Shown here: positions 9,242-47,069 of the stretch, in pieces
How positions within the stretch are numbered: position 1 is the first letter of the stretch
How the letters are laid out: each line of letters starts with the position of its first letter
Assembly (NCBI RefSeq): GCF_003334355.1
Contig: NZ_QOWP01000027.1
Source of the DNA: Escherichia coli
GTDB taxonomy: Bacteria > Pseudomonadota > Gammaproteobacteria > Enterobacterales > Enterobacteriaceae
Strand: one strand, 5' to 3'
DNA: 54,484 bases
Made by a program: the position numbers and the translations under genes
The notes under the pieces: model-generated
The model's input: only the letters and a program-made list of their open reading frames with translations
Told to the model about the DNA's origin: nothing
Database searches by the model: none

Positions 9242-11335
9242 TTACATCAACGCCCCCATAATCTTCAACTCCAGCTCATCCGGCACTTCGTTATACGACA
9301 GCACATGCAGCCCCGGCGCAAACAACCTTGCATAACGCGCCAGCAAAGGGCGCAGCTGCGGTGGCACCAGCAGCACCGGGTCTTTCCCCGCCGCTTTCAT
9401 CTGCTCTTTCACCTGTGGCATCGTACTCTGGAACTGGTTGAGCATATTCGGATCGACCGGCACGCTGTCGAGCATCACTTTCCCGCCCTGTTGCGCCTGA
9501 TTCACCACGTTGGTCAGCAGATTTTCCAGCTCATTATTCAGCGTATACACCGTCAGCTCCTGCTTGCGAACGAACGGATGGGTAATGCTTCGCCGCAGCG
9601 CCAGGCGCACATCAGCTGCCAGCAGAATATGATCTTTGGTCACCGCGCTACTGGCGACCAGCACGGTGGCGATGGTGACGATATCGCGCAGGGAAACGCC
9701 TTCGGTCAGCAGCGCCCGGTACACTTTCAGCAACTGGCTGTAATTGAGCGCCGCGCTTAAATCTTCCGCCAGGCGCGGTGCCATCGACGCCAAACGGTTA
9801 TGCAACTGCGTAATATCATCATAGTTAAACAAATCAGGAATATAGCTGCGCACAATCTTGTTCACATGGGTAGCAATCACGCTGGCGCTGTCGATCACCT
9901 GATACCCCATATTCAGCGCCTTCGCCTTCTGCGCAGGCTGGATCCAGGTGACCGGCATCCCATACGCCGGGTCGTTCCCCAGCACGCCGTCAATCTCGCC
10001 GTAGGTTTCGCTGGAGGGCAGGGCCATCAGTTTATCCGCCGGAATATCCGCTTCATCAGCCTTAATGCCGTTGATGAAAATAGCGTACTGGCTGGGCTTA
10101 AGGCGGAAGTTTTCCCGAATGCGGATCTCCGGCAGCAGCACGCCGTTGCCGTCAGAAATCACCTGTCGCACGCCGCGAATACGCTGGGTGAGCGGGTTGC
10201 CCTGGGCTTTGTCCACCAGCGCCACCAGCTTGTAGCCGAGGCTTAAGCTGATGGGCTCGATCAGCGGAATGGTTTCCCAACTGACCTGTTGCTCGCTGGT
10301 TTCGGTGATGGTGCGGGTCAGCGTTTCGAGACTTTTCTCTTCCGCTTCCGCCGCCTGCGGGCGTTTGCTCATCCGCCAGCCGGTAAAGCCAAGCAGGGCG
10401 CTGAACAGCAAAAACGGCAGATGCGGCATTCCCGGCACCACCGCCAGCACAAACATAATCCCGGTAGCGGTGTAGAGCACCGACGGGCTTGCCAGCAGCT
10501 GGTGGCGCACGTCATGGGCGATATCGCCGTTGTCGCTGACGCGGGTGACGATAATCGCCGCCGCCGTGGAGAGCAGCAGGGAAGGGATCTGCGCCACCAG
10601 GCCGTCGCCGATGGTCATCAGCACATACTGCTGGAAGGCAGCATCGGCGCTCAGGTTGTATTTGAAGATCCCGATACAGACGCCGCCGATCAGGTTGATC
10701 GCCAGAATCATCATCCCGGCGATGGCGTCCCCGCGCACAAACTTCGATGCCCCGTCCATCGCGCCGTAGAAATCGGCCTCGCTGGCAACATCTTTACGCC
10801 GGGTTTGCGCCTGCGCCTGGTTGATCAATCCGGCGTTAAGATCGGCGTCAATCGCCATCTGTTTGCCGGGCATCGCGTCTAAGGTAAAGCGGGCAGAAAC
10901 CTCGGAAATACGCTCGGCCCCTTTGGTGACGACAATAAAGTTGATGATCATCAGGATGATAAACACCACGAAGCCGACGACAAAGTTGCCGCCGATCACC
11001 ACCTGACCAAACGACTCAATCACCTTACCCGCCGCGCCCGCGCCGAGATGCCCGTGCAGCAGCACCACGCGCGTAGAAGCAACGTTAAGCGTCAGGCGCA
11101 TTAAGGTGGTGATCAGCAAAATGGTCGGGAACAGGCTGAATTCCAGCGGCCTTTTCGCCGACACCGCCACCAGCAGCACCATCACCGCCAGCACAATGTT
11201 GAAGGTGAACAGAATATCCAGCAACGCAGGCGGCAGCGGCAAAATAACCATCGCCAGAATACAAAGTATCACCAGCGGCACGCCGAGATTGCCGCCGCGC
11301 AGCAGCGCGAGGAACGATTTAGTTGTTTTCGCCAT
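9242..11335 (-). CDS. lfhA: Flagellar type III export gate protein, FlhA homologue (lateral/Flag-2)
   Basis: 697 aa; N-terminal TM region with FlhA signature (…LPLPPALLDILFTFNIVLAVMVLLVA…FPTILLITTLMRLTLNVASTRVVL) and large cytoplasmic domain; ATG at 11335. Confidence 0.93.
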   Translation of the reverse strand: MAKTTKSFLALLRGGNLGVPLVILCILAMVILPLPPALLDILFTFNIVLAVMVLLVAVSAKRPLEFSLFPTILLITTLMRLTLNVASTRVVLLHGHLGAGAAGKVIESFGQVVIGGNFVVGFVVFIILMIINFIVVTKGAERISEVSARFTLDAMPGKQMAIDADLNAGLINQAQAQTRRKDVASEADFYGAMDGASKFVRGDAIAGMMILAINLIGGVCIGIFKYNLSADAAFQQYVLMTIGDGLVAQIPSLLLSTAAAIIVTRVSDNGDIAHDVRHQLLASPSVLYTATGIMFVLAVVPGMPHLPFLLFSALLGFTGWRMSKRPQAAEAEEKSLETLTRTITETSEQQVSWETIPLIEPISLSLGYKLVALVDKAQGNPLTQRIRGVRQVISDGNGVLLPEIRIRENFRLKPSQYAIFINGIKADEADIPADKLMALPSSETYGEIDGVLGNDPAYGMPVTWIQPAQKAKALNMGYQVIDSASVIATHVNKIVRSYIPDLFNYDDITQLHNRLASMAPRLAEDLSAALNYSQLLKVYRALLTEGVSLRDIVTIATVLVASSAVTKDHILLAADVRLALRRSITHPFVRKQELTVYTLNNELENLLTNVVNQAQQGGKVMLDSVPVDPNMLNQFQSTMPQVKEQMKAAGKDPVLLVPPQLRPLLARYARLFAPGLHVLSYNEVPDELELKIMGALM

Positions 11336-12458
11336 CCAGTTTAAGCACCTCTTTGGGAATGGAAATATCTCTGTTCAGGGCCGGGCGCGGCTGTGCGCCC
11401 TCGCGCCAGTGTTTCATTTGCAGGACGTAGGTCAGAACGTGGGCGATGGCCCGGTAAAGCTGAAACGGAATTTGCTGATTCACCTGGGTGGTGTAGTAAA
11501 CCGAGCGCGCCAGCCGCGGGAACTCGACCACTTCCACCTGATTCTCAGCGGCGACCTGGCGAATATAGAGGGCGATTTCATCGGTGCCTTTCGCCACCAC
11601 AAACGGCGCGGCGGCGCGCGACTGGTCATACTGCAACGCCACGGCGTAGTGGGTCGGGTTGGTGATCACCACGTTGGCTTTCGGCACCACTTTGCGAATT
11701 TGCCCCATCGCCAGTTGCCGTTGCAGTCGCCGCACGCGCGCCTTCACTTCTGGCTTGCCTTCCTGGTTTTTATACTCTTCTTTCAGCTCCTGTTTGGTCA
11801 TCTTCAGCCCTTTGGTGAACAGGGCTTTCGCCAGCGGTACGTCGAGAAGCGCAAAGAAGATAAACAGGATGACAAAGTTGCGCATCACGCTGGCGTAGAG
11901 CGACAAACCCTCATTCATCGCCAGTTTGAACGGTAGCGCCTGCAGGCCGAGAAAGGCGGCAAAGTTATTGCGCAGGCTAATCCACAGCATCACCAGCACC
12001 ACTACCGACTTCACCGTCATCTTCCCTGTTTCCGCCAGATGCTCACTGGAAAACAGCCGCCCAATGCCTTTTAACGGGCTGATTTTGCTGAAATCCGGGA
12101 GGATTTTTTTCGGTAAGAATAGCCAGCCGCCGGGTACCAGCGAAGAGAGCAGCGCGGCGGCAGGCATCGGCAGCAGCGTGAGAATAAACTTGCCGAGAAT
12201 TAACAGGTGATGGCGCAGAAACTGACCGATCACTTCCGGGTTATTAATCTCCTGCGCATACTGATGCACGCTGATAAAACTCTCGCGCACAAAATCGGCA
12301 TACCACGGAAAACTACTGGAGATCACCACAAACGCCGCAAACAGGCTCGCCGCCAGCCCCATATCCTTCGAGCGCGGCAGTTGCCCCTCTTCACGCGCTT
12401 TACGCAGCTTTTGCGCCGAGGGTTTCTCTGTTTTTTCTTCGCTGCTGCTATCCGCCAT
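11319..12458 (-). CDS. lfhB: Flagellar export switch protein, FlhB homologue
   Basis: 379 aa; N-terminus MADSSSEEKTEKPSAQKLRKAREEGQLPRSKD and NPTH autocleavage motif (VVITNPTHYAVAL) diagnostic of FlhB; overlaps lfhA start by 17 nt. Confidence 0.93.
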   Translation of the reverse strand: MADSSSEEKTEKPSAQKLRKAREEGQLPRSKDMGLAASLFAAFVVISSSFPWYADFVRESFISVHQYAQEINNPEVIGQFLRHHLLILGKFILTLLPMPAAALLSSLVPGGWLFLPKKILPDFSKISPLKGIGRLFSSEHLAETGKMTVKSVVVLVMLWISLRNNFAAFLGLQALPFKLAMNEGLSLYASVMRNFVILFIFFALLDVPLAKALFTKGLKMTKQELKEEYKNQEGKPEVKARVRRLQRQLAMGQIRKVVPKANVVITNPTHYAVALQYDQSRAAAPFVVAKGTDEIALYIRQVAAENQVEVVEFPRLARSVYYTTQVNQQIPFQLYRAIAHVLTYVLQMKHWREGAQPRPALNRDISIPKEVLKLDGENN

Positions 12459-13230
12459 AGTGACCTTTCAGCGCGTCGAGCTGTTGCAACACAAAATTCG
12501 CCAGATGCAGATAGTGATCCGGCAGGTTGTAGAGCAGGGTGGCGAAACAGACCAGCCCCGCCAGCATGTTGATGGGAAAGCCGAGCGAAAAGAGGTTCAG
12601 CGGCGGCGCAATGCGGTTGAGCAGGCCAAAGCAGCCCTGCACAATCAGCATGATAAAAGTGGTTGGCAGCGCCAGCAGCGATGCGGACGCCAGCACCCAG
12701 CTAAAGGCCAGCGCGATGGTGCGCAGGGTTTGCGGATGCAGCGCGTTGCCAATCGGCCAGTAGGTGAAGCCCTTATACAGCACGCTCACCAGCAGCAGAT
12801 GCCCGTCCATGGCAAAAAACAGCAGGATCGCATAGACGTTAATTAACTCCGCAAGCACGGTGGTCGATGCGCCGCTGCTTGGGTCGTTCATCACCGCCAT
12901 GCTCATCCCCATATTGAACGAGAGAATTTGCCCGGCCAGTTGCAGCGCCAGAAACAGAAACTGAAACATCAGCCCGAATAACATGCCCCATAAAATTTGC
13001 TCCACCGTCAGGATCAGGCTGTTGAGTGAAAGCAGGTCGTGGGGAATGGGATGGGGGATCAACGGCGTGATGATGATTGCCAGCGCCAGCGACAAAATAA
13101 TCCGCACGCGCACGGTCAGGGCGCTGTTATCCAGCACCGGCACATAGCGCAGAAACGCCATAATGCGCACGAAGGGAAACCACAGCCCCAGCGCCAGATC
13201 CATCAGTTGCGTAACGTCGCTTGTGCGCAT
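12448..13230 (-). CDS. lfiR: Flagellar export apparatus protein, FliR homologue
   Basis: Polytopic membrane protein of FliR size; start set at ATG 13228-13230 (MRTSDVTQLMDLALGLWFPF…), 2 nt after lfiQ stop. Confidence 0.87.
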   Translation of the reverse strand: MRTSDVTQLMDLALGLWFPFVRIMAFLRYVPVLDNSALTVRVRIILSLALAIIITPLIPHPIPHDLLSLNSLILTVEQILWGMLFGLMFQFLFLALQLAGQILSFNMGMSMAVMNDPSSGASTTVLAELINVYAILLFFAMDGHLLLVSVLYKGFTYWPIGNALHPQTLRTIALAFSWVLASASLLALPTTFIMLIVQGCFGLLNRIAPPLNLFSLGFPINMLAGLVCFATLLYNLPDHYLHLANFVLQQLDALKGHYGG

Positions 13231-13231
13231 C

Positions 13232-13504
13232 TTAATGCACCAGCAGGGCTGCCTGGGTAAACAGATGAATGCAGAGATCATGCAACTGGATAATCATCCA
13301 TTTGCCGCACACGCCCAGCACCACCAGCGTGACAATCAGCCTTGGCAAAAAGCTCAGGGTCTGTTCGTTAATCTGCGTCACCGCCTGGAACACGCTCACC
13401 AGCAGGCCAACCAGCAGGCTTGGCACGACCAGTACCGAAACCAGCAAAATCACCACTTTAATGCCGCTGGCGACAATGTCGGCGGCTACGTCTACGGTCA
13501 GCAT
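13232..13504 (-). CDS. lfiQ: Flagellar export apparatus protein, FliQ homologue
   Basis: 90 aa, two TM helices, FliQ-like core (…VFQAVTQINEQTLSFLPRLIV…). Confidence 0.9.
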   Translation of the reverse strand: MLTVDVAADIVASGIKVVILLVSVLVVPSLLVGLLVSVFQAVTQINEQTLSFLPRLIVTLVVLGVCGKWMIIQLHDLCIHLFTQAALLVH

Positions 13505-13506
13505 AA

Positions 13507-14259
13507 TCAGCCCAGCCCCAGCCCGCGAATGCTGGTGGTGAGCGTGCCGATGGTCAGCGACCAGCCGTCGATCAGCACAAACAGCATCAGCTTAAAGGGC
13601 AGCGAAACGATCAGCGGCGACAGCATCATCATCCCCATCGCCATCAATACGCTTGCGACAATCAGGTCGATAACCAGAAACGGGATGTAAATCATAAAGC
13701 CAATCTGGAAGGCGGTTTTCAGCTCGCTCAACACATAGGCGGGCACCACGATAGAGAGATCCTGATCGGCGGCATTGCCCTTCGCGCCGCCGATGGTCAT
13801 GATTTGCGCCATCGCTTTTTTGTCGGTCTGCGCCAGCATAAAGCGTTTCAGCGGCGTCGCGGCGGTGCTTAACGCATCGGTCAGGGTTATCTGATCATTT
13901 TCAAACGGTACTACTGCGTGGTCGTAAATATTGAGCCAGATGGGGCGCATCACCAGCATGGTGAGGGAGAGCGCAATGCCAATCAGAATACGGTTCGGCG
14001 GCGTTTGTTGCAGCCCCAACGCCTGGCGCAGCAGCGACAGCACGATAATAAAGCGCGTAAAGCAGGTCATCATCAGCACCATCGTCGGCAGCAAACCGAC
14101 GAGGGTCATCAGAATCAGCACCTGGATTTTGACGCTGTACTCCTGTGTGTTGCCGTGGGTGACCACGTTAAGCAGCGCAATATCGCCGCCCTGGGCCAAC
14201 GCCAGCGGCGCAAGCGCCAGCAGCCCAAGGCCCAGCGTCAGTTGAGTGCGGCGTTTCAT
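13507..14259 (-). CDS. lfiP: Flagellar export apparatus protein, FliP homologue
   Basis: 250 aa, signal peptide plus FliP signature (…MTLVGLLPTMVLMMTCFTRFIIVLSLLRQALGLQQTPPN…). Confidence 0.92.
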   Translation of the reverse strand: MKRRTQLTLGLGLLALAPLALAQGGDIALLNVVTHGNTQEYSVKIQVLILMTLVGLLPTMVLMMTCFTRFIIVLSLLRQALGLQQTPPNRILIGIALSLTMLVMRPIWLNIYDHAVVPFENDQITLTDALSTAATPLKRFMLAQTDKKAMAQIMTIGGAKGNAADQDLSIVVPAYVLSELKTAFQIGFMIYIPFLVIDLIVASVLMAMGMMMLSPLIVSLPFKLMLFVLIDGWSLTIGTLTTSIRGLGLG

Positions 14260-14627
14260 GGTGCCAGGTCGTTGATATCGCGGGTGTTAAATTCCAGCAC
14301 GCGCAGGCCGTACTTCTCGTTGACCACCACCACTTCCGCTTTGCCCAGCAGGATATTGTTCACTTTAATATCCAGCGGCTCCCCGGCGAGTTTATCCAGC
14401 TCAATCACCGTGTCGTCGTCGATGTTAAGGAGGTCGGCTAACATGATCTCCACCGACGACACTTCCAGCGTTAAGGTCACCGGAATGCGTTTTAGCAGCG
14501 TCATCGAGTCGGAAAAACGGTCTTCCAGGCGGGTGACCAGCGTTTCAGCGTCGGCGGATTTTGCGACAGGCGCAACTTCATCGGTGAGGCCAAAATCCCC
14601 GGCTAAAATATCTTCTTGCTTACTCAT
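14256..14627 (-). CDS. lfiN: Flagellar C-ring protein, FliN homologue
   Basis: C-terminal SpoA/FliN domain (…IPVTLTLEVSSVEIMLADLLNIDDDTVIEL…); stop overlaps lfiP ATG (ATGA); start ATG 14627 (MSKQ) or 14639 (MRIAMSKQ). No FliO gene between lfiN and lfiP. Confidence 0.85.
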   Translation of the reverse strand: MSKQEDILAGDFGLTDEVAPVAKSADAETLVTRLEDRFSDSMTLLKRIPVTLTLEVSSVEIMLADLLNIDDDTVIELDKLAGEPLDIKVNNILLGKAEVVVVNEKYGLRVLEFNTRDINDLAP

Positions 14628-15471
14628 GGCTATTCTCATTTTTGCCCGCCAGCTCCGACAAAAACAGTTTGTCTTTGTCTTCCACAATCAGGGCGCTAAA
14701 TAATTCAGATTGCCCAATCGCCACCGGGAACGTTTCTCCCAGCGAGATGGGTAAAATATCCCCGGCTTTTATCTGCGTGAGATCCGCGACATTCATCGAT
14801 AGCTCGGCGATTTTGACGTTCAGGGTCAGCGGCAGGGAGCGGATGATCTCTTTAATCAGGGCCGGTTTATTGACGGATTTCGCCACCTGCTGCGGTTTAC
14901 TGTGCTCGCTGTGGCGGATCAGATTTAAAATAAAATCGGTGTGGGCGTCGTCGAGCAAAATACGAAAACTGCTCTCTTCATCGCCCGCGAGGGTAAAGGT
15001 TAATTGATACGCCCAGTGGGTAATTACCGTGCTGCTGTCCAGCTTTAATTTCAGCGCAATACCGGAGGTTTGCAGATTAAATATCAGCGTGCAGATATCC
15101 AGCGCGAGTCGGTTTTTTAACCGCGTTTCGGTTTTGGTCGGCAGCCCGTTATGCGCTTTCGCCTCTTCAAGAGAGGACTCCAGACCATAAAAATTGCCCA
15201 GCAGCATTAACAGCAAGGAGCGATCGATATCAAACGCCAGATGCCCGACCTGGGAAACCATCATTTCGGCGTTTTTATTAATAATATCCATTTCGCAGCC
15301 AATCTTTTTTAAGGTGATATTGCTGCGATGCTTTTTGAGAAAGTAGCTGCCCAGATGCGAATCAATCACGTCAAAATTCCCCGTAAACAGGGTCGGCAGG
15401 CGATGGTAGGGGCGTCCGAGCCGATTACCTTCTAATTTAAAGATGCCTGGCGTTTTACTGTACTTCAGCAT
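14620..15471 (-). CDS. lfiM: Flagellar C-ring switch protein, FliM homologue
   Basis: 283 aa, first gene of minus-strand operon lfiMNPQR-lfhBA; FliM-like size and position; ATG at 15471. Confidence 0.87.
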   Translation of the reverse strand: MLKYSKTPGIFKLEGNRLGRPYHRLPTLFTGNFDVIDSHLGSYFLKKHRSNITLKKIGCEMDIINKNAEMMVSQVGHLAFDIDRSLLLMLLGNFYGLESSLEEAKAHNGLPTKTETRLKNRLALDICTLIFNLQTSGIALKLKLDSSTVITHWAYQLTFTLAGDEESSFRILLDDAHTDFILNLIRHSEHSKPQQVAKSVNKPALIKEIIRSLPLTLNVKIAELSMNVADLTQIKAGDILPISLGETFPVAIGQSELFSALIVEDKDKLFLSELAGKNENSHE

Positions 15472-15649: not shown

Positions 15650-15735
<86 letters not shown>

Positions 15736-15858: not shown

Positions 15859-16845
15859 ATGTCTGAACTTATTGCAACTGCCGCTTCCAGCATTAACGCT
15901 TTTACTCTGGCAAAGCGTGTCGCCGCCTTTAACGTGCCGGTGCTCATTCAGGGCGAAACCGGTGCGGGCAAAGAGTGCGTGGCAAAATATATTCACACCG
16001 TAGCTTTTGGTGAAAATGATAACGCGCCCTATATCGGCGTGAACTGCGCAGCGATCCCGGAAAATATACTGGAAGCCACCTTATTTGGCTACGACAAAGG
16101 TGCATTTACCGGCGCAATTGCCAGCGTGCCTGGAAAAATGGAACTGGCGAATAACGGCACCTTATTGCTCGATGAAATTGGCGATATGCCGCTGGCATTA
16201 CAGGCCAAAATATTACGCGTATTGCAGGAACAACAGGTTGAGCGATTAGGCAGCAACCGACAAATTAAACTCAATTTTCGCCTGATTGCCTGCACCAATA
16301 AAAACCTTGAGCAGGAAGTCGCCGCCGGGCGTTTTCGTGAAGATCTCTATTATCGTCTGGCGGTTATTCCTATTACCATGCCGCCGCTGCGCGAACGTCT
16401 GAACGATATTATTCCGCTGGCAGAGTCATTTATTAAAAAATACTCCACGGTGCTGGTGAAAAATATCACCCTTTCAGAATCTACCCGCCGGGCGCTGCTG
16501 AATTACCGCTGGCCCGGCAACGTGCGCCAGCTGGAAAACGCCATTCAGCGGGGAATGATCTTGAACCGCGACGGCGTGATTTACCCGGATGTCTTAGGCT
16601 TGCCGGAAACGGACGTTGCCGATCGCAGCGAACTGCAATGGCCTGTTCAGCCCGCCGTACACATTGCCGAAACCAGCGATTTAGGCCAGCACGGACGAAG
16701 CGCCCAGTATCAATATATCGCCGACCTGATGCGTAAATATCAGGGCAACCGCAGCAAAATCGCCGACCTGTTAGGCATTACCCCGCGCGCACTGCGCTAT
16801 CGACTGGCCTCCATGCGCAAGCAAGGTATCGAAGTTTTCTCCTGA
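15859..16845 (+). CDS. lafK: Sigma-54-dependent transcriptional activator (AAA+ plus HTH, no receiver domain)
   Basis: 328 aa; Walker A GETGAGKE about 30 residues from start, GAFTGA-like motif (GYDKGAFTGA), Walker B (LLLDEIGDM), C-terminal Fis-type HTH; in-frame stop at 15781 upstream, so no N-terminal REC domain can be encoded. Confidence 0.88.
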   Translation: MSELIATAASSINAFTLAKRVAAFNVPVLIQGETGAGKECVAKYIHTVAFGENDNAPYIGVNCAAIPENILEATLFGYDKGAFTGAIASVPGKMELANNGTLLLDEIGDMPLALQAKILRVLQEQQVERLGSNRQIKLNFRLIACTNKNLEQEVAAGRFREDLYYRLAVIPITMPPLRERLNDIIPLAESFIKKYSTVLVKNITLSESTRRALLNYRWPGNVRQLENAIQRGMILNRDGVIYPDVLGLPETDVADRSELQWPVQPAVHIAETSDLGQHGRSAQYQYIADLMRKYQGNRSKIADLLGITPRALRYRLASMRKQGIEVFS

Positions 16846-16859
16846 CCCGGAAGTTAAAA

Positions 16860-17201
16860 ATGAGCATTACCACAATCAACAGCACCATGCAGGCGCAAAT
16901 CATGCAGGACGTGCAGCGGATGCAGGCCAACGCCCAGGCACCGGTGCTGCCCGCCATGACCTTCAGTTCCACCGACCCTGACGTTTCGTTTAACCGCATT
17001 ATGAGCGGCGCGCTCGGTCACGTTGACCAGTTCCAGCAGGTGGCGGAGCAGCAGCAAACGGCTATCGACATGGGCAAAAGCGATGACCTGGCAGGTGCGA
17101 TGATCGCCAGCCAGCAGGCGTCGCTCTCTTTCTCCGCGCTGGTGCAGGTGCGCAACAAAATCGCCACCGGGTTTAATGACCTGATGAGTATGTCGATCTA
17201 A
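16860..17201 (+). CDS. lfiE: Flagellar hook-basal body protein, FliE homologue
   Basis: 113 aa, FliE-like size and C-terminal region (…SLSFSALVQVRNKIATGFNDLMSMSI). Confidence 0.87.
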   Translation: MSITTINSTMQAQIMQDVQRMQANAQAPVLPAMTFSSTDPDVSFNRIMSGALGHVDQFQQVAEQQQTAIDMGKSDDLAGAMIASQQASLSFSALVQVRNKIATGFNDLMSMSI

Positions 17202-17205
17202 CCCT

Positions 17206-38403: not shown

Positions 38404-38417
38404 TATATTGGCACTCA

Positions 38418-39260: not shown

Positions 39261-39745
39261 AGTTGAGTTTACCTTAGCAAGGGATAAATGTTACCTGATA
39301 GTGCTTTGCATAAAGCACAGTCTTATACGTCCCTGAGAAGATGATTTTTCTGCGTGATAATTAATATTTTATGGTAATAGGATTATTCTTAATCACTATA
39401 TGGCGTGGAAATGTAACGAAATGACAGGATAGGTACAATAGCCAAATGTGTACTATTTGCAACGCAATGTAAATTTTGGCATCAGTACATTGAGAAGAAA
39501 ACGCGTTAATTGATGGTAATCTTAACTATATCAAGCGTTTGATAAAGACATATTTTGATACCTGGCCATGTGGCAGATATTGCTAATAATCCTTTTATCT
39601 GAATTTAAACTCTGCTTTTTTTAGCTAAAAGTGGCATCAGATAAACCGCGCTGAAATTTTTTTAACGGCGGTTTTAAGTTTGCTCCCGAGGTGTCGTTTT
39701 TACAGGGTATCGAAACGAAAACGATTAATCCCAAGGAGCAGTATC

Positions 39746-40660
39746 ATGTTATCTATTAACACCAATAACGCCTCAATGGCCGCCGTTAATGCAATCAGCA
39801 AAAGCAGCTCTTCTCTGTCTACATCTATGGAACGCCTGGCGACAGGTAACCGGATTAACTCTTCTGCCGATGACGCAGCGGGCAAACAAATTGCTAACCG
39901 TCTGACTGCACAGTCAAGCGGTATGGGCGTGGCGCTGAGCAATATCAATGATGCCACCGCGATGCTGCAAACCGCCGACAGCATGTTCGATGAAATGTCT
40001 GACGTGCTGGGTCGTATGAAAGACCTGTCAACTCAGGCAGCGAACGGCACCTACAGCGACGACGACCTGCAGGCGATGCAGGACGAATACGACGAACTGG
40101 GTCAGCAGATGTCTGACATGCTGCAAAACACCACCTACGGCGGCACCAACCTGTTCGGTGTTTCCGGCACCAGCAACACCGGTACTGACGGCCTGTTCCA
40201 GAGCGCGGTAACCTTCCAGGTGGGCGCGGAATCTTCCGACACCATGACCGTGAACATTTCAAGCCAACTGAATACCCTGGTGACGGATCTTTCTGCTATC
40301 AGCAACTCCTTCAGTGCGGATCAGGCAGACACCACGGGTACTGCAGGCGTGTCTGGCGGTACTGAGCTGACTGCGTCTGGCTCGGCTAACCAGATGATTA
40401 CCAGCATTTCTACCGCGATGGATGACGTTTCTCAGATTCAGTCCAAGCTGGGTGCGTCTATTAACCGTCTGAACGACACTGCCAACAACCTGACCAGCAT
40501 GCAGGACAACACCGAAGTTGCTATCGGTAACATCATGGATACCGACTACGCGACGGAAGCGTCCAACATGACCAAACAGCAGGTGCTGATGCAGACCGGC
40601 ATCACCATGCTGAAACAGTCCAACAGCATGTCCAGCATGGTTTCCAGCCTGCTGCAGTAA
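39746..40660 (+). CDS. lafA: Lateral flagellin
   Basis: 304 aa from ATG 39746 with AAGGAG RBS; flagellin N-terminal domain (MLSINTNNASMAAVNAISK…LATGNRINSSADDAAGKQIANRLT…) and C-terminal domain (…VLMQTGITMLKQSNSMSSMVSSLLQ); short Ser/Thr/Gly-rich central region. Confidence 0.93.
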   Translation: MLSINTNNASMAAVNAISKSSSSLSTSMERLATGNRINSSADDAAGKQIANRLTAQSSGMGVALSNINDATAMLQTADSMFDEMSDVLGRMKDLSTQAANGTYSDDDLQAMQDEYDELGQQMSDMLQNTTYGGTNLFGVSGTSNTGTDGLFQSAVTFQVGAESSDTMTVNISSQLNTLVTDLSAISNSFSADQADTTGTAGVSGGTELTASGSANQMITSISTAMDDVSQIQSKLGASINRLNDTANNLTSMQDNTEVAIGNIMDTDYATEASNMTKQQVLMQTGITMLKQSNSMSSMVSSLLQ

Positions 40661-40669
40661 TGGCGGACT

Positions 40670-40773
<104 letters not shown>

Positions 40774-40791
40774 TGCGTTTGTCATCAGTCT

Positions 40792-40903: not shown

Positions 40904-40918
40904 TGGCACGCCTTTTGC
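40904..40918 (+). promoter_or_regulatory. Candidate sigma-54 (-24/-12) promoter for lafB operon
   Basis: TGGCACgccttTTGCc: exact TGGCAC-N5-TTGC spacing, about 33 nt upstream of lafB ATG. Confidence 0.55.
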
Positions 40919-40950: not shown

Positions 40951-42267
40951 ATGATCAACCCAAGAACCATTGCGCAAGAAATCGCCTATGCCGACGTTGC
41001 CACTCAGGCGGCAAACTTGCAGGAAAAGCAAACGGAGCTGGATGCTGAAAGCAGCGGCCTGGACTCGCTCAGCTCAGCGTTGAGCGATTTCCAGAGCGCC
41101 GTTGACGCGCTGAACAGCGATACCGACGGCCCGGTGACTTTTGCCGCCACCAGCAATAATGACTCGGCGACCGTTTCCGCCAATTCCCAGGCGCAGGCGG
41201 GAAGCTACTCATTTTTCGTTGAGCAACTGGCGCAGGGGCAGCAGACCACATTCAGTATGGGCGACGACGCCTTTTCCGCCACCGGCACCTTCGAACTGAC
41301 GATGGGCGACAGCACCATGGATATCGATCTGTCGGCGGCAGATCAGAACGGTGACGGCGATGGTTTTATCGACGCCAGCGAGCTGGTGAATGCGATTAAC
41401 GACTCCGATGACAATCCAGGCGTGTCGGCGGCACTGGTAAAAACCGACGGCACCACCACGATTATGCTCACCTCCGATAGCACCGGGGCGCAGAGCGCGT
41501 TTTCGGTGAGCGTAACGGGGCATGATGCCAGCAACGATAGCACCAGCGCGCCCGTTGCCACGGATGTTTCCTCCGCTCAGGACGCGATTATTCATCTCGG
41601 TAGCGCCACAGGGCCTGCGATCACCAACAGCAGCAATACATTTGATGATGTGATCCCCGGCGTCACCATGACTTTTACCGAAGTCAGCGATTCTGACAGC
41701 GATCTCACCACCTTTAATATCAGCGAAGATTCCAGCGCCAGCCAGGAGAAAGTACAGACCTTTGTCGATGCCTATAACACCTTGATTGATACGGTTGATT
41801 CGCTGACCACTCACGGTGATGACAGTACCAGCGCCGGGGTATTTGCAGGCGACGCCGGGCTCAGTTCACTGGCGAACCAGCTCGATGACATCGCCCATGC
41901 CAGCTACAACGGCGTGTCGATTGTTGACTATGGCATCACCCTCGATTCTCACGGCCACTTACAGATTGACTCCGACCAGTTCAACGACGAAATGGCGAAA
42001 AATCCTGACGGTCTGACCTCTATTTTCGTTGGCGACAACAGCATGGTGGCGCAGATGGACGACCTGATTAACACCTACACGGACTCCAGCAACGGCATCA
42101 TCACCCTGCGCCAGCAGAACATTGACGATCAGATGAGCAAAATTCAGGACGAAGGCGATCAGCTTACCGATACCTATAACGCCAACTACGACCGTTATCT
42201 GGAGGAGTACACCAACACGCTGGTTGAGGTGTACACCATGAAAGCCAGCATGGCGGCATTCGCGTAA
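40951..42267 (+). CDS. lafB: Flagellar filament cap protein, FliD homologue
   Basis: 438 aa; FliD-like N-terminal coiled coil and C-terminal domain; ATG 40951. Confidence 0.9.
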   Translation: MINPRTIAQEIAYADVATQAANLQEKQTELDAESSGLDSLSSALSDFQSAVDALNSDTDGPVTFAATSNNDSATVSANSQAQAGSYSFFVEQLAQGQQTTFSMGDDAFSATGTFELTMGDSTMDIDLSAADQNGDGDGFIDASELVNAINDSDDNPGVSAALVKTDGTTTIMLTSDSTGAQSAFSVSVTGHDASNDSTSAPVATDVSSAQDAIIHLGSATGPAITNSSNTFDDVIPGVTMTFTEVSDSDSDLTTFNISEDSSASQEKVQTFVDAYNTLIDTVDSLTTHGDDSTSAGVFAGDAGLSSLANQLDDIAHASYNGVSIVDYGITLDSHGHLQIDSDQFNDEMAKNPDGLTSIFVGDNSMVAQMDDLINTYTDSSNGIITLRQQNIDDQMSKIQDEGDQLTDTYNANYDRYLEEYTNTLVEVYTMKASMAAFA

Positions 42268-42289
42268 CTCAGAAGGAATATCCCTAAAG

Positions 42290-42682
42290 ATGTACCAAGT
42301 ACAGGATGGCTATTCGCAATATAAAGAGATCGATCTCGCGGCGCGTACTGCGGCGGCATCGCCTCTGGAACTGGTGCTGGTGCTGTTTTCTGGCCTGATG
42401 GACGAGCTGGAACGCGCCAAAAGCCATATTGAAGGGCGGCGTTTCGAGAAGAAAGCCCAGAGCATCAATAAATGCATCGACATTCTCAATGCGCTCACCA
42501 GTTCGTTGGAGTTTGAAACCGGCGGCGAGCTGGTGGTCAACCTTTCGCGCCTCTATGACCACTGCGTTTACCGATTGTATGAGGCCAGCGGCGAACTGTC
42601 GGCAGAGAAAATCGATGAAGTGATGCTGATCTTAAGCAACCTGCGCGAAGGCTGGGAAGGGCTTTCGGGCAAGCTGGGTTAA
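42290..42682 (+). CDS. lafC: Flagellin-specific chaperone, FliS homologue
   Basis: 130 aa with FliS-like four-helix core (…ELVLVLFSGLMDELERAKSHIE…CIDILNALTSSLEFETGGELVVNLSRLYDHCVYRL…). Confidence 0.9.
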   Translation: MYQVQDGYSQYKEIDLAARTAAASPLELVLVLFSGLMDELERAKSHIEGRRFEKKAQSINKCIDILNALTSSLEFETGGELVVNLSRLYDHCVYRLYEASGELSAEKIDEVMLILSNLREGWEGLSGKLG

Positions 42683-42686
42683 GACG

Positions 42687-42998
42687 ATGGATAAACAATG
42701 CAGGCAACTTTTCGCACTGGTCGAGGCGATGAATGAAGCCCTCGACAAGCAACGCTGGCGACGCCTTCCGGCACTGCATCAGCAGTTGATGCGCCAGTTT
42801 CACGATTACGCGGCGGCGGAAACCGATGCGGCGCAGTTGGATGCAGTGAAAGCGCGACTTTATGACGCGTTTAACGCCCTGATTAAACGGCGCGAGCAGC
42901 GCACAGAAGTGTTGAAGGCGCGTATGGAACAGCATCAGCGGCATCAGGAAGGCGTACTGGCCTACTCAATTGTTAATTTACTTTCGGAGAAGTCATGA
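42687..42998 (+). CDS. lafD: FliT-like export chaperone/regulator
   Basis: 103-aa helical protein immediately after fliS homologue. Confidence 0.65.
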   Translation: MDKQCRQLFALVEAMNEALDKQRWRRLPALHQQLMRQFHDYAAAETDAAQLDAVKARLYDAFNALIKRREQRTEVLKARMEQHQRHQEGVLAYSIVNLLSEKS

Positions 42999-44056
42999 AT
43001 CCGGCATTGCTTGCCACGCTCGGAACGCTTGCGGAAACCGCTTCGTTGAAGGCGGATATTTTACCGCCGGTGAGCGGTGAAAACGCGCCCGCGTTTACCC
43101 TGCCGAAAATGGCGGTCGCGGCGGTGGCGGAGCGCGTTCATAGCGCTAAAACCAGTCAGCAACAGGCGACGCGCCCGCAGGAGAACGATCCGGTGGCGAT
43201 GCAGGCGCTAATGGCGCTGTTACTTCCACAACCTGCCGCGCCGCATCAGGACACGCCGCAGCCGCGAAACGTCGCAACATCGCCGGTTATCCAGCAATTG
43301 ACGAAAGCGGTGGTGCAAAACGCGCCGCAACGCCCGACGCAACAGCAGGAACTCACGCCGTTGCCGCCGCAGTTGCAGGAACTGATCAGTCAGTTGCCGC
43401 AGGAGAAACCCGAACAGCAGGCCAGACTGGCGACTTACGCCAGTGAAGATTTACATGCCATTGCGTCGACGCAGCCGCGCGTCTCAACACAGCCAGCTCG
43501 CCCGAAACCTGAACTAACCCGTGTGACCGCGCGCCCGCAGGTCGAGCGTAAAACGGAAAAAGTGCCGGACAGCGAACCGGTTATTGCGCGTGCGGTGTTG
43601 CAGGTTAAGACGCCGGAGCTGGTCAGCGATCATCAGGAGATTGTCGCCAAACCCGTCACGCTTTCGATGGACGAACTGGGCGAAAAACTGACGACGCTGT
43701 TGAAAGATCAGATCCACTTTCAGCTCAACAAACAACAGCAGATCTCCACCATCCGTCTCGATCCACCGTCGCTTGGCAAGCTCGAGATCGCCGTACAACT
43801 CGACAACGGCAAACTGATGGTGCACATCGGCGCGAACCAAAGTGAAGTTTGCCGCGCGTTACAGCAGTTTAGCGACGATCTCCGCCAGCATCTGACGGCG
43901 CAAAATTTTATGGAGGTGAACGTACAGGTTTCCTCCGAAGGGCAGTCGCAGCAACAACAACAGTCGGGCCATCAGCAGGAAGAGGTGAGTGCTGCCTTAC
44001 AGCTTGATGATGCGCCTCAATTTCAACAGAACGAATCCGTTTTGATCAAAGTGTAA
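42995..44056 (+). CDS. lafE: Hook-length control protein, FliK-like
   Basis: 353 aa; Pro/Gln-rich central region and conserved FliK C-terminal domain (…IRLDPPSLGKLEIAVQLDNGKLMVHIGANQSEV…); start overlaps lafD stop. Confidence 0.8.
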   Translation: MNPALLATLGTLAETASLKADILPPVSGENAPAFTLPKMAVAAVAERVHSAKTSQQQATRPQENDPVAMQALMALLLPQPAAPHQDTPQPRNVATSPVIQQLTKAVVQNAPQRPTQQQELTPLPPQLQELISQLPQEKPEQQARLATYASEDLHAIASTQPRVSTQPARPKPELTRVTARPQVERKTEKVPDSEPVIARAVLQVKTPELVSDHQEIVAKPVTLSMDELGEKLTTLLKDQIHFQLNKQQQISTIRLDPPSLGKLEIAVQLDNGKLMVHIGANQSEVCRALQQFSDDLRQHLTAQNFMEVNVQVSSEGQSQQQQQSGHQQEEVSAALQLDDAPQFQQNESVLIKV

Positions 44057-44063
44057 AGGCAAT

Positions 44064-44531
44064 ATGAAGAAAATCGTGGTGGCGGGCGTGGTCAGCGCCG
44101 TTCTGGCGTTGGTGGTGGGGGCCGGAGCTGGATGGGGTGTCTGGCATCATTATGCCGGAAAAGGAAAACCGACTGCCGCCGCGCAGACGGAAACGGTGGA
44201 AACCCTGGATGAGAGCAAAAGCGTGTTTGTGACGTTGCCGGAAACCATTGTCACGCTGCATGACAATAACGGCGCGGACCATTATTTGTCGGCGGAATTA
44301 GTGATGGTGGTCGCCAGTGACAAAGAAGCGGAAAAAATAAAACATCAGGAGCCGCTGTATCAAAGTATTGCGGTTGAATGCCTGACGGAAATGAAATTTG
44401 AAGATTTGCGTGGCATGAAAATATCCGCCATCCGCAAACTCATTTCTGACGCGTTAAAGAAAGATCTTCAGCGTCGCAAAATGAGCGCACCGTATAAGGA
44501 TTTGCTGGTGAAAAAAGTGGTCTTCCAGTAA
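44064..44531 (+). CDS. lafF: Flagellar basal-body-associated protein, FliL homologue
   Basis: 155 aa, single N-terminal TM helix (IVVAGVVSAVLALVVGAGAGW) plus periplasmic FliL-like domain. Confidence 0.85.
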   Translation: MKKIVVAGVVSAVLALVVGAGAGWGVWHHYAGKGKPTAAAQTETVETLDESKSVFVTLPETIVTLHDNNGADHYLSAELVMVVASDKEAEKIKHQEPLYQSIAVECLTEMKFEDLRGMKISAIRKLISDALKKDLQRRKMSAPYKDLLVKKVVFQ

Positions 44532-44550
44532 TCACCAGGCGGATATAAAT

Positions 44551-45267
44551 ATGCTACAGGATGTATTCGAGTCGGAAGAATTTGCTGCCGCGCCGGTATT
44601 AACCCCGCAGCAGGAGAGCCACTACTTGCAGGCCTATTTACCGTTGGTGCGTAAAGTGGTGCGGCAACTTGCCCCGCAGTGTAATTGCATTATTGATCGT
44701 CAGGATATGGAACAAACGGCGTTAATGGGGCTGCTTAATGCCATCCGCCGCTACGGGCTGCCGGACGAAGGTTTTGCGGGCTATGCCGTGCACCGTATTC
44801 GCGGCGCGATCCTGGATGAGCTGCGCGCTCTCGACTGGCGACCGCGCCAGCTGCGACAGAAATATCATCAGATGAAAGATCTGATTCGCGAAACGCGCAA
44901 AAAACTGGGGCACGAACCGGAGTGGTCAGAACTGGCCGTGGAAGGGATCTCGCATGAAGATTATCTCGAATATCAGCAACTGGAAGGGGCGGAAACGCTC
45001 GCCAGCCTGGACGAACTGCTGAACAGCGAAGGGCCAGGCATTCCGCTTGCTGGCCGGGAGCTGGAAGATCAGTTTGTCACTCAGCAAATGCTGCAACAGG
45101 CGCTTTCACAATTAAGCGAAAAAGAGCAACTGATCCTCTCCATGTATTACCAGCATGAGATGAATCTCAAAGAGATTGCGCTGGTATTAGGGCTAACCGA
45201 GGCCCGAATTTGTCAACTGAATAAACAGATCGCGCAGAAAATTCGTGATTTTGTCTATCCGAATTAA
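44551..45267 (+). CDS. lafS: Flagellar sigma-28 factor (FliA family)
   Basis: 238 aa; sigma-70 family regions 2 and 4 (…LILSMYYQHEMNLKEIALVLGLTEARICQLNKQIAQKIR). Confidence 0.9.
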   Translation: MLQDVFESEEFAAAPVLTPQQESHYLQAYLPLVRKVVRQLAPQCNCIIDRQDMEQTALMGLLNAIRRYGLPDEGFAGYAVHRIRGAILDELRALDWRPRQLRQKYHQMKDLIRETRKKLGHEPEWSELAVEGISHEDYLEYQQLEGAETLASLDELLNSEGPGIPLAGRELEDQFVTQQMLQQALSQLSEKEQLILSMYYQHEMNLKEIALVLGLTEARICQLNKQIAQKIRDFVYPN

Positions 45268-45279
45268 AGTGAAGAAATC

Positions 45280-46143
45280 ATGCAAAAAATATTAGGTTTA
45301 CTGGTGGTGCTCGGCTGCGTATTTGGCGGTTATTTTGAAGCGGGCGGGCAATTAGTGGCTATCTGGCAACCGGCGGAAATGATCATTATTTTGGGTGCCG
45401 GTTTCGGGGCGATGATTATTGGTAACCCGAAACATGTGCTGAAAGAGATTGCCCATCAAATTAAAGGCGTGATCAGTAAAAAACAGCTCGGGCCGGAGTT
45501 TCAGCGCCAGCTATTAATGTGCCTGTATGAGTTACTCGAAATGGTGCAAAACGGTGGTCTGCGCATGCTGGATCAACATATTGAGCAACCGGAAGAGAGC
45601 ACCATTTTCCAGAAATACCCGCTGGTGTTAACCCAGAAGCGGCTGGTGACCTTTATTGCCGATAACTTTCGCCTGATGGCGATGGGTAAAATCGACGCCC
45701 ATGAACTGGAAGGCATTCTCGATCAGGAACTGGACACCGCGGAAGAGTCGCTGCTAACGCCGTCGCGCTCGCTGCAACGTACCGCCGAAGCGATGCCGGG
45801 GTTTGGCATTTGTGCGGCGGTGTTGGGCATCATCATCACCATGCAGTCGATTGACGGCTCTATCGCCCTGATTGGCCTGAAAGTGGCGGCAGCGCTGGTG
45901 GGGACATTTTTAGGCGTCTTTATCTGCTACTGCCTGATGGACCCACTCGCCAACGCCATGGAACAACAGGCGCGGGCAGAACATTCTTTGCTGGAATGCG
46001 TGCGTACCGTGCTGGTGGCGCAGGCAGGCGGCAAACCGACGCTGCTGGCGGTGGACGCCGGGCGTAAGCTACTGCATCTGGCGTCCAAACCGACCTTCGC
46101 CAACCTCGACGCGTGGGTGAATGCGATGCTGGAGCAAGAATAA
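45280..46143 (+). CDS. lafT: Flagellar stator protein, MotA homologue
   Basis: 287 aa, four TM helices, MotA/TolQ/ExbB-like. Confidence 0.92.
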   Translation: MQKILGLLVVLGCVFGGYFEAGGQLVAIWQPAEMIIILGAGFGAMIIGNPKHVLKEIAHQIKGVISKKQLGPEFQRQLLMCLYELLEMVQNGGLRMLDQHIEQPEESTIFQKYPLVLTQKRLVTFIADNFRLMAMGKIDAHELEGILDQELDTAEESLLTPSRSLQRTAEAMPGFGICAAVLGIIITMQSIDGSIALIGLKVAAALVGTFLGVFICYCLMDPLANAMEQQARAEHSLLECVRTVLVAQAGGKPTLLAVDAGRKLLHLASKPTFANLDAWVNAMLEQE

Positions 46144-46145
46144 GC

Positions 46146-47069
46146 ATGAGAAAGACGGGTAACCGCCGCGATCGTGGGGCAAAAACCACCATCGTCCGGC
46201 GGCAGATCAAAAAGAATCATGCCGGGCACCACGGCGGGGCGTGGAAGGTGGCGTTCGCCGACTTTACTTTGGCAATGATGGCGCTGTTTATGACGCTGTG
46301 GATTGTCAACAGCGTCAGTAAATCCGAGCGTGAAAGCATTATCGCCGCGCTGCACGGGCAGTCGATTTTTAACGGTGGTGGGCTGTCGCCGTTAAATAAA
46401 ATCAGCCCGTCTCATCCGCCAAAACCTGCCACCGTGGCGGTGCCGGAAGAGACGGAGAAAAAAGCGCGCGACGTCAACGAGAAAACGGCGCTGCTGAAGA
46501 AGAAATCCGCCACCGAGCTTGGCGAGCTGGCAACCAGTATCAACACAATTGCCCGTGATGCGCATATGGAAGCGAATCTGGAGATGGAGATTGTTCCCCA
46601 GGGATTGCGCGTGCTGATTAAAGATGACCAGAATCGCAATATGTTCGAACGCGGCAGCGCGCAGATTATGCCGTTCTTTAAAACGCTGCTGGTGGAGCTC
46701 GCGCCAGTGTTCGACTCGCTCGATAACAAAATTATTATTACCGGGCATACCGATGCGATGGCCTACAAAAACAATATCTACAACAACTGGAACCTTTCGG
46801 GTGACCGCGCGCTTTCGGCTCGTCGGGTGCTGGAAGAGGCCGGAATGCCGGAAGATAAAGTGATGCAGGTAAGCGCAATGGCGGACCAGATGCTGCTGGA
46901 CGCGAAGAATCCGCAAAGTGCGGGTAATCGGCGCATCGAGATTATGGTGCTGACCAAAAGTGCGTCCGATACGCTGTATCAATACTTTGGTCAGCATGGG
47001 GATAAAGTGGTGCAGCCGCTGGTGCAAAAGCTGGATAAGCAGCAGGTGCTTTCGCAGCGAACGCGCTAA
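46146..47069 (+). CDS. lafU: Flagellar stator protein, MotB homologue (OmpA-like C-terminal domain)
   Basis: Start ATG 46146 (MRKTGNRRDRG…) just after lafT stop; TM helix (FADFTLAMMALFMTLWIV) and OmpA-type peptidoglycan-binding domain (…ITGHTDAMAY…NWNLSGDRALSARRVLEE…NRRIEI). Confidence 0.9.
   Translation: MRKTGNRRDRGAKTTIVRRQIKKNHAGHHGGAWKVAFADFTLAMMALFMTLWIVNSVSKSERESIIAALHGQSIFNGGGLSPLNKISPSHPPKPATVAVPEETEKKARDVNEKTALLKKKSATELGELATSINTIARDAHMEANLEMEIVPQGLRVLIKDDQNRNMFERGSAQIMPFFKTLLVELAPVFDSLDNKIIITGHTDAMAYKNNIYNNWNLSGDRALSARRVLEEAGMPEDKVMQVSAMADQMLLDAKNPQSAGNRRIEIMVLTKSASDTLYQYFGQHGDKVVQPLVQKLDKQQVLSQRTR

Follow-up and report, generated by a model that had tools for sequence, protein, structure and literature searches.

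We analyzed a 54,484-nucleotide (nt) stretch of Escherichia coli DNA (contig NZ_QOWP01000027.1 of assembly GCF_003334355.1, hereafter the window), which carries the lateral-type flagellar locus Flag-2 as one contiguous cluster of 37.8 kb, running from lfhA to lafU (9242-47069) at the rayT-dinB site. All 42 open reading frames (ORFs) in this interval translate without an internal stop, and their lengths equal those of the coding sequences predicted by the Prokaryotic Genome Annotation Pipeline (PGAP) in E. coli PSS-12, none of which is marked as a pseudogene. The gene junctions are operon-like: neighbouring genes overlap by 1-23 nt or stand 1-20 nt apart. An earlier reading of this DNA, made from the sequence alone, had described a complete Flag-2 locus with uninterrupted frames, and our analysis agrees: no disruptive frameshift was found in the 42 ORFs, and their products fall into the expected families save LafD, LfiM, and LafW.

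The families were assigned by NCBIfam and Pfam profile searches of the 42 products. NCBIfam recognized FlhA, FlhB, FliR, FliQ, FliP, FliN, FliE, FliF, FliG, FliH, FliI, FliJ, FlgM, FlgA, FlgB to FlgL, and the lateral flagellin LafA, and further FliD, FliS, a FliK/YscP-type C-terminal domain, FliL, FliA, MotA, and LafU/MotB; the exceptions were LafW, LafD, and most of LfiM. The claim that every structural class is encoded was therefore supported for most classes, but not for LafD as a FliT, which lacks any detectable similarity, and only by a C-terminal match for LfiM. In their survey of 4028 Enterobacterales genomes, De Maayer et al. (2020) defined 39 conserved flag-2 genes in three clusters (lfhAB-lfiRQPNM-lafK-lfiEFGHIJ, lfgNMABCDEFGHIJKL, and lafWZABCDEFSTU), with a variable region VR1 between lfiJ and lfgN and another, VR2, between lafW and lafZ (PMC6993521). 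All 39 genes are intact in the window and follow the published three-cluster order, and three VR1 genes are added to them.

The first part of cluster 1, lfhA-lfhB-lfiR-lfiQ-lfiP-lfiN-lfiM (9242-15471, minus strand, transcribed from lfiM to lfhA), encodes the export gate and the FliN- and FliM-like proteins of the C-ring. Its ORFs overlap or are joined by junctions of 1-2 nt, and the NCBIfam scores were 773 bits for FlhA, 345 for FlhB, 175 for FliR, 80 for FliQ, 244 for FliP, and 84 for FliN. LfhB carries the NPTH autocleavage motif at residues 267-270. The second part, lafK-lfiE-lfiF-lfiG-lfiH-lfiI-lfiJ (15859-22321, plus strand), encodes a sigma-54 enhancer-binding protein, FliE, the MS-ring protein FliF, FliG, and the FliH/FliI/FliJ ATPase complex, with a Walker A motif (GSGVGKS) at residue 168 of LfiI.

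In the second cluster, lfgN, lfgM, and lfgA (26516-28053, minus strand) encode a FlgN chaperone (Pfam FlgN, E 2e-19), an anti-sigma-28 factor, and a P-ring chaperone, the latter two exceeding the NCBIfam FlgM and FlgA cut-offs. The genes lfgB-C-D-E-F-G-H-I-J-K-L (28135-37365, plus strand) follow, for the rod, hook cap, hook, L and P rings, rod-binding FlgJ, and junction; lfgC (28473-28904, plus strand) is intact and encodes 143 amino acids (aa), and LfgJ (99 aa) has the rod-binding part of FlgJ but no muramidase domain. A lipobox (LLSGC) is present in LfgH, and LfgI, LfgA, and LfiP carry signal peptides.

The lateral flagellin gene lafA (39746-40660, plus strand) encodes 304 aa and scored 667 bits against the NCBIfam LafA model NF033376 (cut-off 440). 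Downstream lie lafB (FliD cap), lafC (FliS), lafD, lafE (FliK-like), lafF (FliL), lafS, lafT, and lafU (40951-47069, plus strand), where LafS is a sigma-28 factor (NF009091, 448 bits), LafT a MotA, and LafU a MotB-like protein. Asp39 of LafU aligned to the proton-binding Asp32 of MotB, and LafT retains Pro173 and Pro222. When LafT (45280-46143) was compared with K-12 MotA and LfiG (18830-19840) with FliG, the charge pair MotA R90/FliG D289 was found to be uncharged on both sides (LafT Q90 and LfiG A292-I293), while the pair MotA E98/FliG R281 was kept as LafT D98/LfiG R285, all positions being approximate in global alignments of 32-36% identity. The loss of the R90/D289 charges on both sides may represent a co-varying change of the torque interface.

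Some flagellar components are absent or divergent. The stop codon of lfiN and the start codon of lfiP overlap by 4 nt (14256-14259), and no fliO, the gene for a small bitopic membrane protein that lies between fliN and fliP, is present there. FliO, FlhD, and FlhC showed no blastp or tblastn similarity at E<=10 to the 42 products or the whole window, and no query among FliO, FlhD, FlhC, FliT, FliZ, and FlhE scored better than E 0.02 in blastp against the 42 products or tblastn against the window. ORFs of 25 aa or more in the gaps between the genes were mostly translations of repetitive extragenic palindromic (REP) elements, and none resembled a membrane protein. The lack of FliO and of FlhDC claimed by the sequence-only reading was thus confirmed.

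Its naming of LafD as FliT did not hold: the 103-aa LafD had no match in NCBIfam, Pfam, the PDB sequences, or a blastp comparison with E. coli FliT, and the hints at a FliT role are its size and its position after lafC (fliS). For LfiM, only the C-terminal FliN-like domain and a short preceding stretch match FliM (Pfam FliMN_C, 1e-6; TIGR01397, 4e-7 over profile positions 204-304). Sequence searches of LfiM did not detect the FliM middle domain, and on inspection of its sequence the N-terminal CheY-binding peptide of FliM (LSQAEIDALL) was absent. Because LfiM lacks this peptide, the Flag-2 motor is probably not under chemotactic control, and lateral motors have been described as non-chemotactic with divergent FliG and FliM (PMC8042155).

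None of the 42 products resembles MotY, LafU being the sole protein with an OmpA domain, and the MotY and Maf-5 proteins of Vibrio and Aeromonas lateral systems have been reported as absent from E. coli Flag-2 (PMC3032704). The stator-associated protein MotY(L) is essential in Vibrio parahaemolyticus. It does not define the lateral family as a whole, because the functional Plesiomonas cluster lists none either. The locus is hence complete in a relative sense only, as it lacks MotY and Maf-5 and, as described below, a gene that follows lafZ in other genera.

The gene lafW (37382-38359, plus strand) is specific to Flag-2, and its product had no Pfam or NCBIfam match. Homologues, also without a Pfam domain, were found only in Enterobacterales. 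An AlphaFold2 model of LafW built on a 21-sequence alignment had a predicted local distance difference test score of 70 overall and of 80-90 at residues 60-270. A Foldseek search with this model against PDB ranked flagellins at the top (best E 1.7e-7, probability 1.0, template modeling score only 0.2-0.3) and FlgL lower. The model thus supports a predicted flagellin/FlgL-like fold and backs the old label of "hook-associated/flagellin-like".

The three VR1 genes (22324-26389) were assigned with NCBIfam and Pfam, and the same set is found in E. coli 042. They encode a TagD-like glycerol-3-phosphate cytidylyltransferase (22324-22719, plus strand), an 814-aa glycosyltransferase (22837-25281, minus strand) that combines a GT2 domain at its N-terminus with a weakly TagB/F-like C-terminus, and LafV, a FliB-like lysine-N-methylase (25460-26389, minus strand). 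These genes fit the published idea of a methylated flagellin containing glycerol phosphate (PMC6993521). LafV covers only positions 106-363 of the FliB profile; an N-terminal lesion was considered and rejected, as LafV of 042 is the same protein of 309 aa. Between the glycosyltransferase gene and lafV, a 178-bp gap (25282-25459) contains a GC-rich palindrome whose translations (…SPTGRGRK… and …LSPKGRGD…) resemble an E. coli intergenic repeat family.

To look at the regulation of the locus, the whole window was scanned for the sigma-54 motif TGGCAC-N5-TTGC. The motif was not enriched (9 matches against 6.5 expected window-wide), and three matches are intergenic, correctly oriented, and placed 32-37 nt before the start codons of lfgB, lafB, and lafV. 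The sigma-54-type motif TGGCATGGCGATTGC (28083-28097, plus strand) lies 37 nt upstream of lfgB, and the perfect motif TGGCACGCCTTTTGC (40904-40918, plus strand) lies 32 nt upstream of lafB, at the head of the lafS/stator operon. In Flag-2 loci of Citrobacter rodentium, Leminorella, and Ewingella, fetched through their LafW homologues, the surrounding sequence has diverged; the lfgB and lafB motifs have 0-1 mismatch in all five loci compared, from four genera. The third, sigma-54-like motif CGGCACGCTTATTGC (26425-26439, minus strand), preceded by a hairpin that follows lfgN, is placed 36 nt before lafV and is unchanged in 042, suggesting LafK control over the modification genes of VR1. A conserved TGTCAC-N8-TTGC before lfiM was rejected as a sigma-54 promoter for its wrong spacing.

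LafK (328 aa) opens directly with its AAA+ domain, in which Walker A lies at residue 32 and the GAFTGA sigma-54 contact loop at residue 81. As no receiver domain is present, its activity is presumably set by its own abundance. In V. parahaemolyticus, LafK drives class II genes including fliA(L), which in turn drives class III, according to work cited in PMC4481668; as lafS lies in the lafB operon, the sigma-54 site before lafB would reproduce this hierarchy.

A second element, T(T/A)AAG-N14-15-GYCGYTTT, was found before lafA and lfgK and is conserved in several of the genera compared, with a variant before lfgM. It is read as a predicted LafS (sigma-28) promoter because its genes belong to class III in other flagellar systems. 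The copy upstream of lafA is TTAAG-N14-GTCGTTTT (39674-39700, plus strand), recognizable in C. rodentium, Leminorella, and Ewingella; that upstream of lfgK is TTAAG-N15-GCCGCTTT (34985-35012, plus strand), and the one before lfgM in the window is TAAAG-N15-ACCGCTTTA, on the minus strand in the lfgM-lfgA gap (27236-27315). The E. coli FliA consensus TAAAG-N14-GCCGATAA, allowing up to 3 mismatches, gave only scattered intragenic matches; the Flag-2 -10 element differs (GYCGYTTT).

The gene lafZ (38418-39260, minus strand), divergent from lafA across a 485-bp AT-rich gap, encodes a ToxR/CadC-like membrane-bound regulator. LafZ has the ToxR/VtrA-type architecture, with an N-terminal winged helix, a single hydrophobic transmembrane segment (residues ~152-170), and, in the periplasm, a C-terminal domain of ~110 aa, which is conserved and has conserved Cys residues in an alignment with its orthologues. 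It matched the NCBIfam CadC N-terminus, and its best PDB sequence was that of the V. cholerae ToxR DNA-binding domain (E 3.5e-8). A truncation of LafZ in E. coli (280 aa against 316-332) was considered and discarded, since only a low-complexity cytoplasmic linker is shorter while the winged-helix, transmembrane, and periplasmic domains are complete. The proposal that regulation rests on LafK, LafS, and LafZ agrees with the sequence analyses and the literature.

We then compared the region downstream of lafZ in six non-Escherichia loci (C. rodentium, C. freundii, Leminorella, Ewingella, Atlantibacter, and Pseudescherichia). All six have, directly after lafZ, an ORF for a VtrC/ToxS-like secreted protein of 155-159 aa with a signal peptide and two invariant cysteines (in our numbering of the loci, L008 10999-11472 in C. 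rodentium, L012 4999-5478 in C. freundii, and L009 11685-12152, L010 11035-11511, L013 4999-5472, and L014 4987-5460 in the others), and in five of them it overlaps lafZ by exactly 23 nt. The encoded protein had no Pfam match. The gene is absent from all three Escherichia loci compared (the window, 042, and L011), and the lafZ-lafW gap of the window (38360-38417) is occupied by a REP element. A blastn search with the C. freundii gene against 5426 complete E. coli genomes found nothing, at a sensitivity that an orthologue below ~65-70% DNA identity would escape. De Maayer et al. treated the lafW-lafZ position as the cargo region VR2, with mostly hypothetical proteins (PMC6993521). In the literature searched, we found no paper linking this protein to LafZ, and the relevant lafZ papers that we found discuss no partner. 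The Vibrio ToxR-ToxS and VtrA-VtrC systems are pairs of a sensor and a partner, and it is such a partner gene that is missing beside lafZ in these Escherichia loci.

At the same site, E. coli K-12 MG1655 has the pseudogenes lfhA (b0229) and lafU (b0230) between rayT and dinB. MG1655 aligned to positions 4884-10954 and 46298-49606 of the window, the two alignments overlapping by 15 nt of imperfect similarity where they meet, so that the segment missing from K-12 (~10955-46297) measures 35.3 kb. K-12 keeps the 3' 1713 nt of lfhA (9242-10954) and the 3' 772 nt of lafU (46298-47069), and these stubs, lfhA' and lafU', are joined head to head at an imperfect short repeat. The placement between yafM (rayT) and dinB by the sequence-only reading, with only terminal fragments in K-12, was thus correct.

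The Flag-2 locus of enteroaggregative E. coli 042 (NC_017626.1, 284682-323159), reportedly described by Ren et al. in 2005 (J Bacteriol 187:1430) according to later papers, served as the reference. It has the same rayT-dinB site, gene order, orientation, and three VR1 genes. A comparison with the 042 locus, recommended in the sequence-only reading, gave full-length orthologues for all 42 window proteins, with 90-100% identity (tblastn). Two differences concern gene content and integrity. The lfgC gene is annotated as frameshifted in 042 (tblastn aligned it only from residue 16, in a split alignment) but is intact in the window. In addition, the lafW-lafZ interval holds a RelE/ParE pair in 042 but 58 bp with a REP element in the window, a difference that accounts for the 44 genes of the 042 PGAP locus against 42 here. 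Alleles with an intact lfgC had been noted earlier in strains W, Crooks, and EC958 (PMC3032704, PMC4637896).

At least 80% of window positions 9000-33000 is covered by 1008 of the 5426 complete E. coli genomes, and at least 80% of positions 33000-54484 by 1266 of them, corresponding to a Flag-2 prevalence of 19-23%. This agrees with the 24% of E. coli reported by De Maayer et al., who also found that all 76 strains without the locus, out of 100, bear the lfhA'/lafU' scar (PMC6993521). The finding is thus a correct re-identification of an already known locus, since the locus was described in 2005, surveyed in 2020, and is present in about a fifth of E. coli.

To evaluate the selection acting on the locus, the ratio of non-synonymous to synonymous substitution rates (dN/dS) between the window and 042 was calculated by the Nei-Gojobori method. 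The 38 core genes showed 1108 synonymous and 181 non-synonymous differences (dS 0.169, dN/dS 0.045), indistinguishable from 11 flanking housekeeping genes (dS 0.144, dN/dS 0.042). The core genes are therefore under purifying selection as strong as that on the flanking housekeeping genes. The flagellin gene lafA had 35 synonymous and 0 non-synonymous differences, leaving the LafA protein 100% identical to that of 042, and lafT, lafU, lfgK, and lafB had ratios of 0.01-0.03 (lafT 0.012, lafU 0.028). The ratio was 0.12 for the VR1 genes, and lafZ, at 0.17, is still constrained in E. coli. The selection signature indicates natural use of Flag-2, in circumstances that laboratory work has yet to reproduce.

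Flag-2 was also compared with other flagellar systems. Like the Laf systems of V. parahaemolyticus, Aeromonas hydrophila, and Plesiomonas shigelloides, it is a second FlhDC-independent set with LafK and its own sigma-28 and anti-sigma factors, and shares with them a short LafA-family flagellin, a MotAB-type stator, a divergent FliM, and a fliMNPQR-flhBA block without fliO. In Plesiomonas, the lateral cluster is given as fliM(L)-fliR(L) and flhB-A(L), with FliO listed for the polar set only and motY unmentioned (PMC4481668). Unlike these systems, E. coli Flag-2 has lafW, lafZ, and a module for a glycerol-phosphate-type modification, and lacks MotY(L) and Maf-5; furthermore, the Vibrio, Aeromonas, and Plesiomonas systems are experimentally functional, whereas E. 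coli Flag-2 has never been shown to be so. The resemblance to lateral-type systems lies in the LafA-family flagellin and, at motif level, in LafK with its putative sigma-54 sites and a sigma-28 factor of its own with predicted target sites. E. coli Flag-1 has the same list of structural parts, built of homologous proteins, but is spread over three chromosomal regions where Flag-2 forms one 37.8-kb block, and it has FlhDC, FliO, FliT, FliZ, FlhE, the FlgJ muramidase, and the CheY-binding N-terminus of FliM, none of which were found in Flag-2. Since the identity to K-12 Flag-1 proteins is only 23-51%, Flag-2 is a separate system, not a duplication.

We consider it likely that the region represents an undamaged allele of Flag-2 as already known from E. 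coli, a gamma-proteobacterial lateral-type system separate from the FlhDC-controlled Flag-1, which would work as follows. The export gate of LfhA/B and LfiP/Q/R, assembled without FliO, would act with the LfiH/I/J ATPase, and this apparatus would build the MS and C rings, the rod, the P and L rings, and the hook, with LafE as a ruler. The LfgK/L junction, perhaps together with the flagellin-like LafW, would then carry the LafA filament, which would be capped by LafB and is probably modified by the VR1 enzymes. Torque would come from a MotAB-type proton stator of LafT and LafU (Asp39). On the regulatory side, LafK would fire the sigma-54 promoters before lfgB and lafB, the lafB operon would yield the sigma-28 factor LafS, and LfgM would keep LafS inactive until completion of the hook-basal body. 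Freed LafS would then fire the lafA, lfgK, and lfgM promoters, the ToxR-like LafZ being the likely environmental input.

Several points weigh against this reading. Both the function of E. coli Flag-2 and its expression in this strain are predictions. Absence of expression, which the sequence-only reading took as the mark of a cryptic cluster, has been reported for another E. coli: strain EC958, whose lfgC is intact too, gave no detectable LafA, and its fliC mutant did not move, at either 28 or 37 °C (PMC4637896). By our genome counts and by PMC6993521, the locus has been deleted in roughly four out of five E. coli strains. The promoter motifs are consensus matches rather than mapped transcription starts, and no sigma-54 motif was found before lfiM, lafK, lfgA, and lfgE, leaving part of the hierarchy unexplained, nor before lfgK, lafA, and lafZ. 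Finally, the role of LafZ is predicted, and a downstream partner of the ToxS/VtrC type (the lipocalin-like beta-barrel class) is absent in Escherichia. Elsewhere, the swarming of strain W could not be attributed to Flag-2, as the assays were not specific to it (PMC3032704), the Plesiomonas lateral system is functional (PMC4481668), and the Yersinia enterocolitica Flag-2 genes are most highly expressed at 20 °C, according to work cited in PMC11420993.

The silence of EC958 would also be expected if the locus were a cryptic relic, intact here by chance and heading for the loss seen as a deletion in K-12 and as the lfgC frameshift in 042. The retention of the locus in only 1008-1266 of the 5426 genomes, the lack of at least one core gene in 22% of enterobacterial flag-2 loci (PMC6993521), the missing VtrC/ToxS-like gene, and the absence of MotY and Maf-5 relative to Vibrio and Aeromonas point in the same direction. 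However, a silent copy would look otherwise, because non-synonymous changes and indels should have gathered at a dS of ~0.17. Instead, dN/dS over the 38 core genes is at the level of the neighbouring housekeeping genes, the flagellin has no non-synonymous change against 35 synonymous ones, and conservation extends to all 42 ORFs, to the promoters, and to the key residues for catalysis and structure. We therefore regard a relic as rather unlikely, although it is the likeliest of the rivals.

Alternatively, the apparatus could be kept mainly for protein export or adhesion instead of motility, a use that De Maayer et al. put forward for certain taxa. Effector-like cargo in VR1 and VR2 of other taxa (PMC6993521) and the faint C-rings of lateral motors (PMC8042155) would suit such a use, but the window has no effector-like cargo, VR1 being made of filament-modification genes and VR2 of the 58-bp REP gap; moreover, lafT, lafU, and lafA are among the most constrained genes (0.012, 0.028, and 0), as expected for a rotating filament, and we find this use improbable. 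A recent horizontal acquisition by this strain, in place of an ancestral E. coli locus, might be read into a G+C content of ~0.55-0.60 inside the locus against ~0.50 in the flanks, and into the +4.8% G+C deviation noted by De Maayer et al. in Escherichia (PMC6993521). Yet the insertion site is that of 042 and matches the K-12 scar, which is borne by all locus-negative strains of the published set, dS to 042 is flank-like (0.169 against 0.144), and E. coli REP elements occupy multiple intergenic gaps, all of which makes a recent arrival very improbable.

Within the preferred reading of an intact lateral-type system, a more specific and speculative proposal is that Flag-2 is selectively maintained but conditional, with its LafZ switch rewired by the loss of the partner gene, which could explain the laboratory silence; we hold this to be possible, with the odds against it. 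On this proposal, LafZ of other Enterobacterales would act together with a co-transcribed VtrC/ToxS-like co-sensor in the periplasm, whose gene was lost in the Escherichia lineage and replaced by a REP element in the gap. If true, the Citrobacter partner, or LafK expression bypassing LafZ, would awaken E. coli lateral flagella. The window is of value for the question whether E. coli is able to make a second flagellum of the lateral type. It offers a clean allele for tests of function, with no frameshift, insertion sequence (IS) element, prophage, or cargo genes, and it comes with leads in the selection signature, the predicted sigma-54 and sigma-28 promoters, usable as reporters, and the missing LafZ partner as a candidate cause of silence.

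REP elements or bacterial interspersed mosaic elements were found in at least eight Flag-2 gaps (15654-15735, 22744-22837, 29698-29735, 31727-31764, 32709-32750, 34878-34966, 38360-38417, and 40668-40780) and outside the locus at 5013-5145, 8342-8474, and 8983-9216. Rfam assigned 15654-15731 to naRNA4 and 40705-40747 to ES036. The locus abuts rayT, which encodes a REP-associated tyrosine transposase and has REP clusters on both its sides. The REP content of the gaps differs from 042 (window against 042: lfgD-lfgE, 159 and 23 bp; lfgF-lfgG, 78 and 178 bp; lafA-lafB, 290 and 204 bp), so that REP elements have continued to be gained or lost within E. coli. In C. rodentium, lfgF is split into ORFs of 175 and 66 aa (L008 3796-4533), a rod-gene disruption that fits the non-motility reported for this species (PMC6993521).

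The window is E. coli chromosome. Its nearest complete genome, that of E. coli PSS-12 (NZ_AP027697.1), is collinear with it and differs by 13 substitutions over 54.3 kb, the final ~180 nt excepted, where the window enters an insertion sequence. By the PSS-12 PGAP names, the left neighbours of Flag-2 are yafV, ivy, fadE, lpcA, yafJ, dpaA, yafQ-dinJ, yafL, and the border gene rayT (= yafM; 8521-9018), and the right neighbours are the border gene dinB (47140-48195), yafNOP, prfH'/rtcB' remnants, pepD, gpt, frsA, and crl. Toxin-antitoxin pairs lie on both sides of the locus, dinJ-yafQ on the left (6845-7386) and yafN-yafO on the right (48247-48941); in 042, dinJ-yafQ is absent, and the RelE/ParE pair inside VR2 (L005 10387-11037) is a third such pair. 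The left edge of the window (within 1-253) holds an ISAs1-family transposase fragment with an internal stop, and the truncated rtcB and prfH pseudogenes, named after the PSS-12 annotation, lie to the right of yafP (within 49637-50372). At the right edge, crl, intact in PSS-12, is broken after codon ~101 by an IS10/ISVsa5-type element of the IS4 family (54301-54484), recognized from the ISVsa5 transposase ends of many genomes, which it matches at 100%, and from the Rfam RNA-OUT at 54346-54415. Loss of crl would reduce sigma-S activity and curli expression in the source strain.

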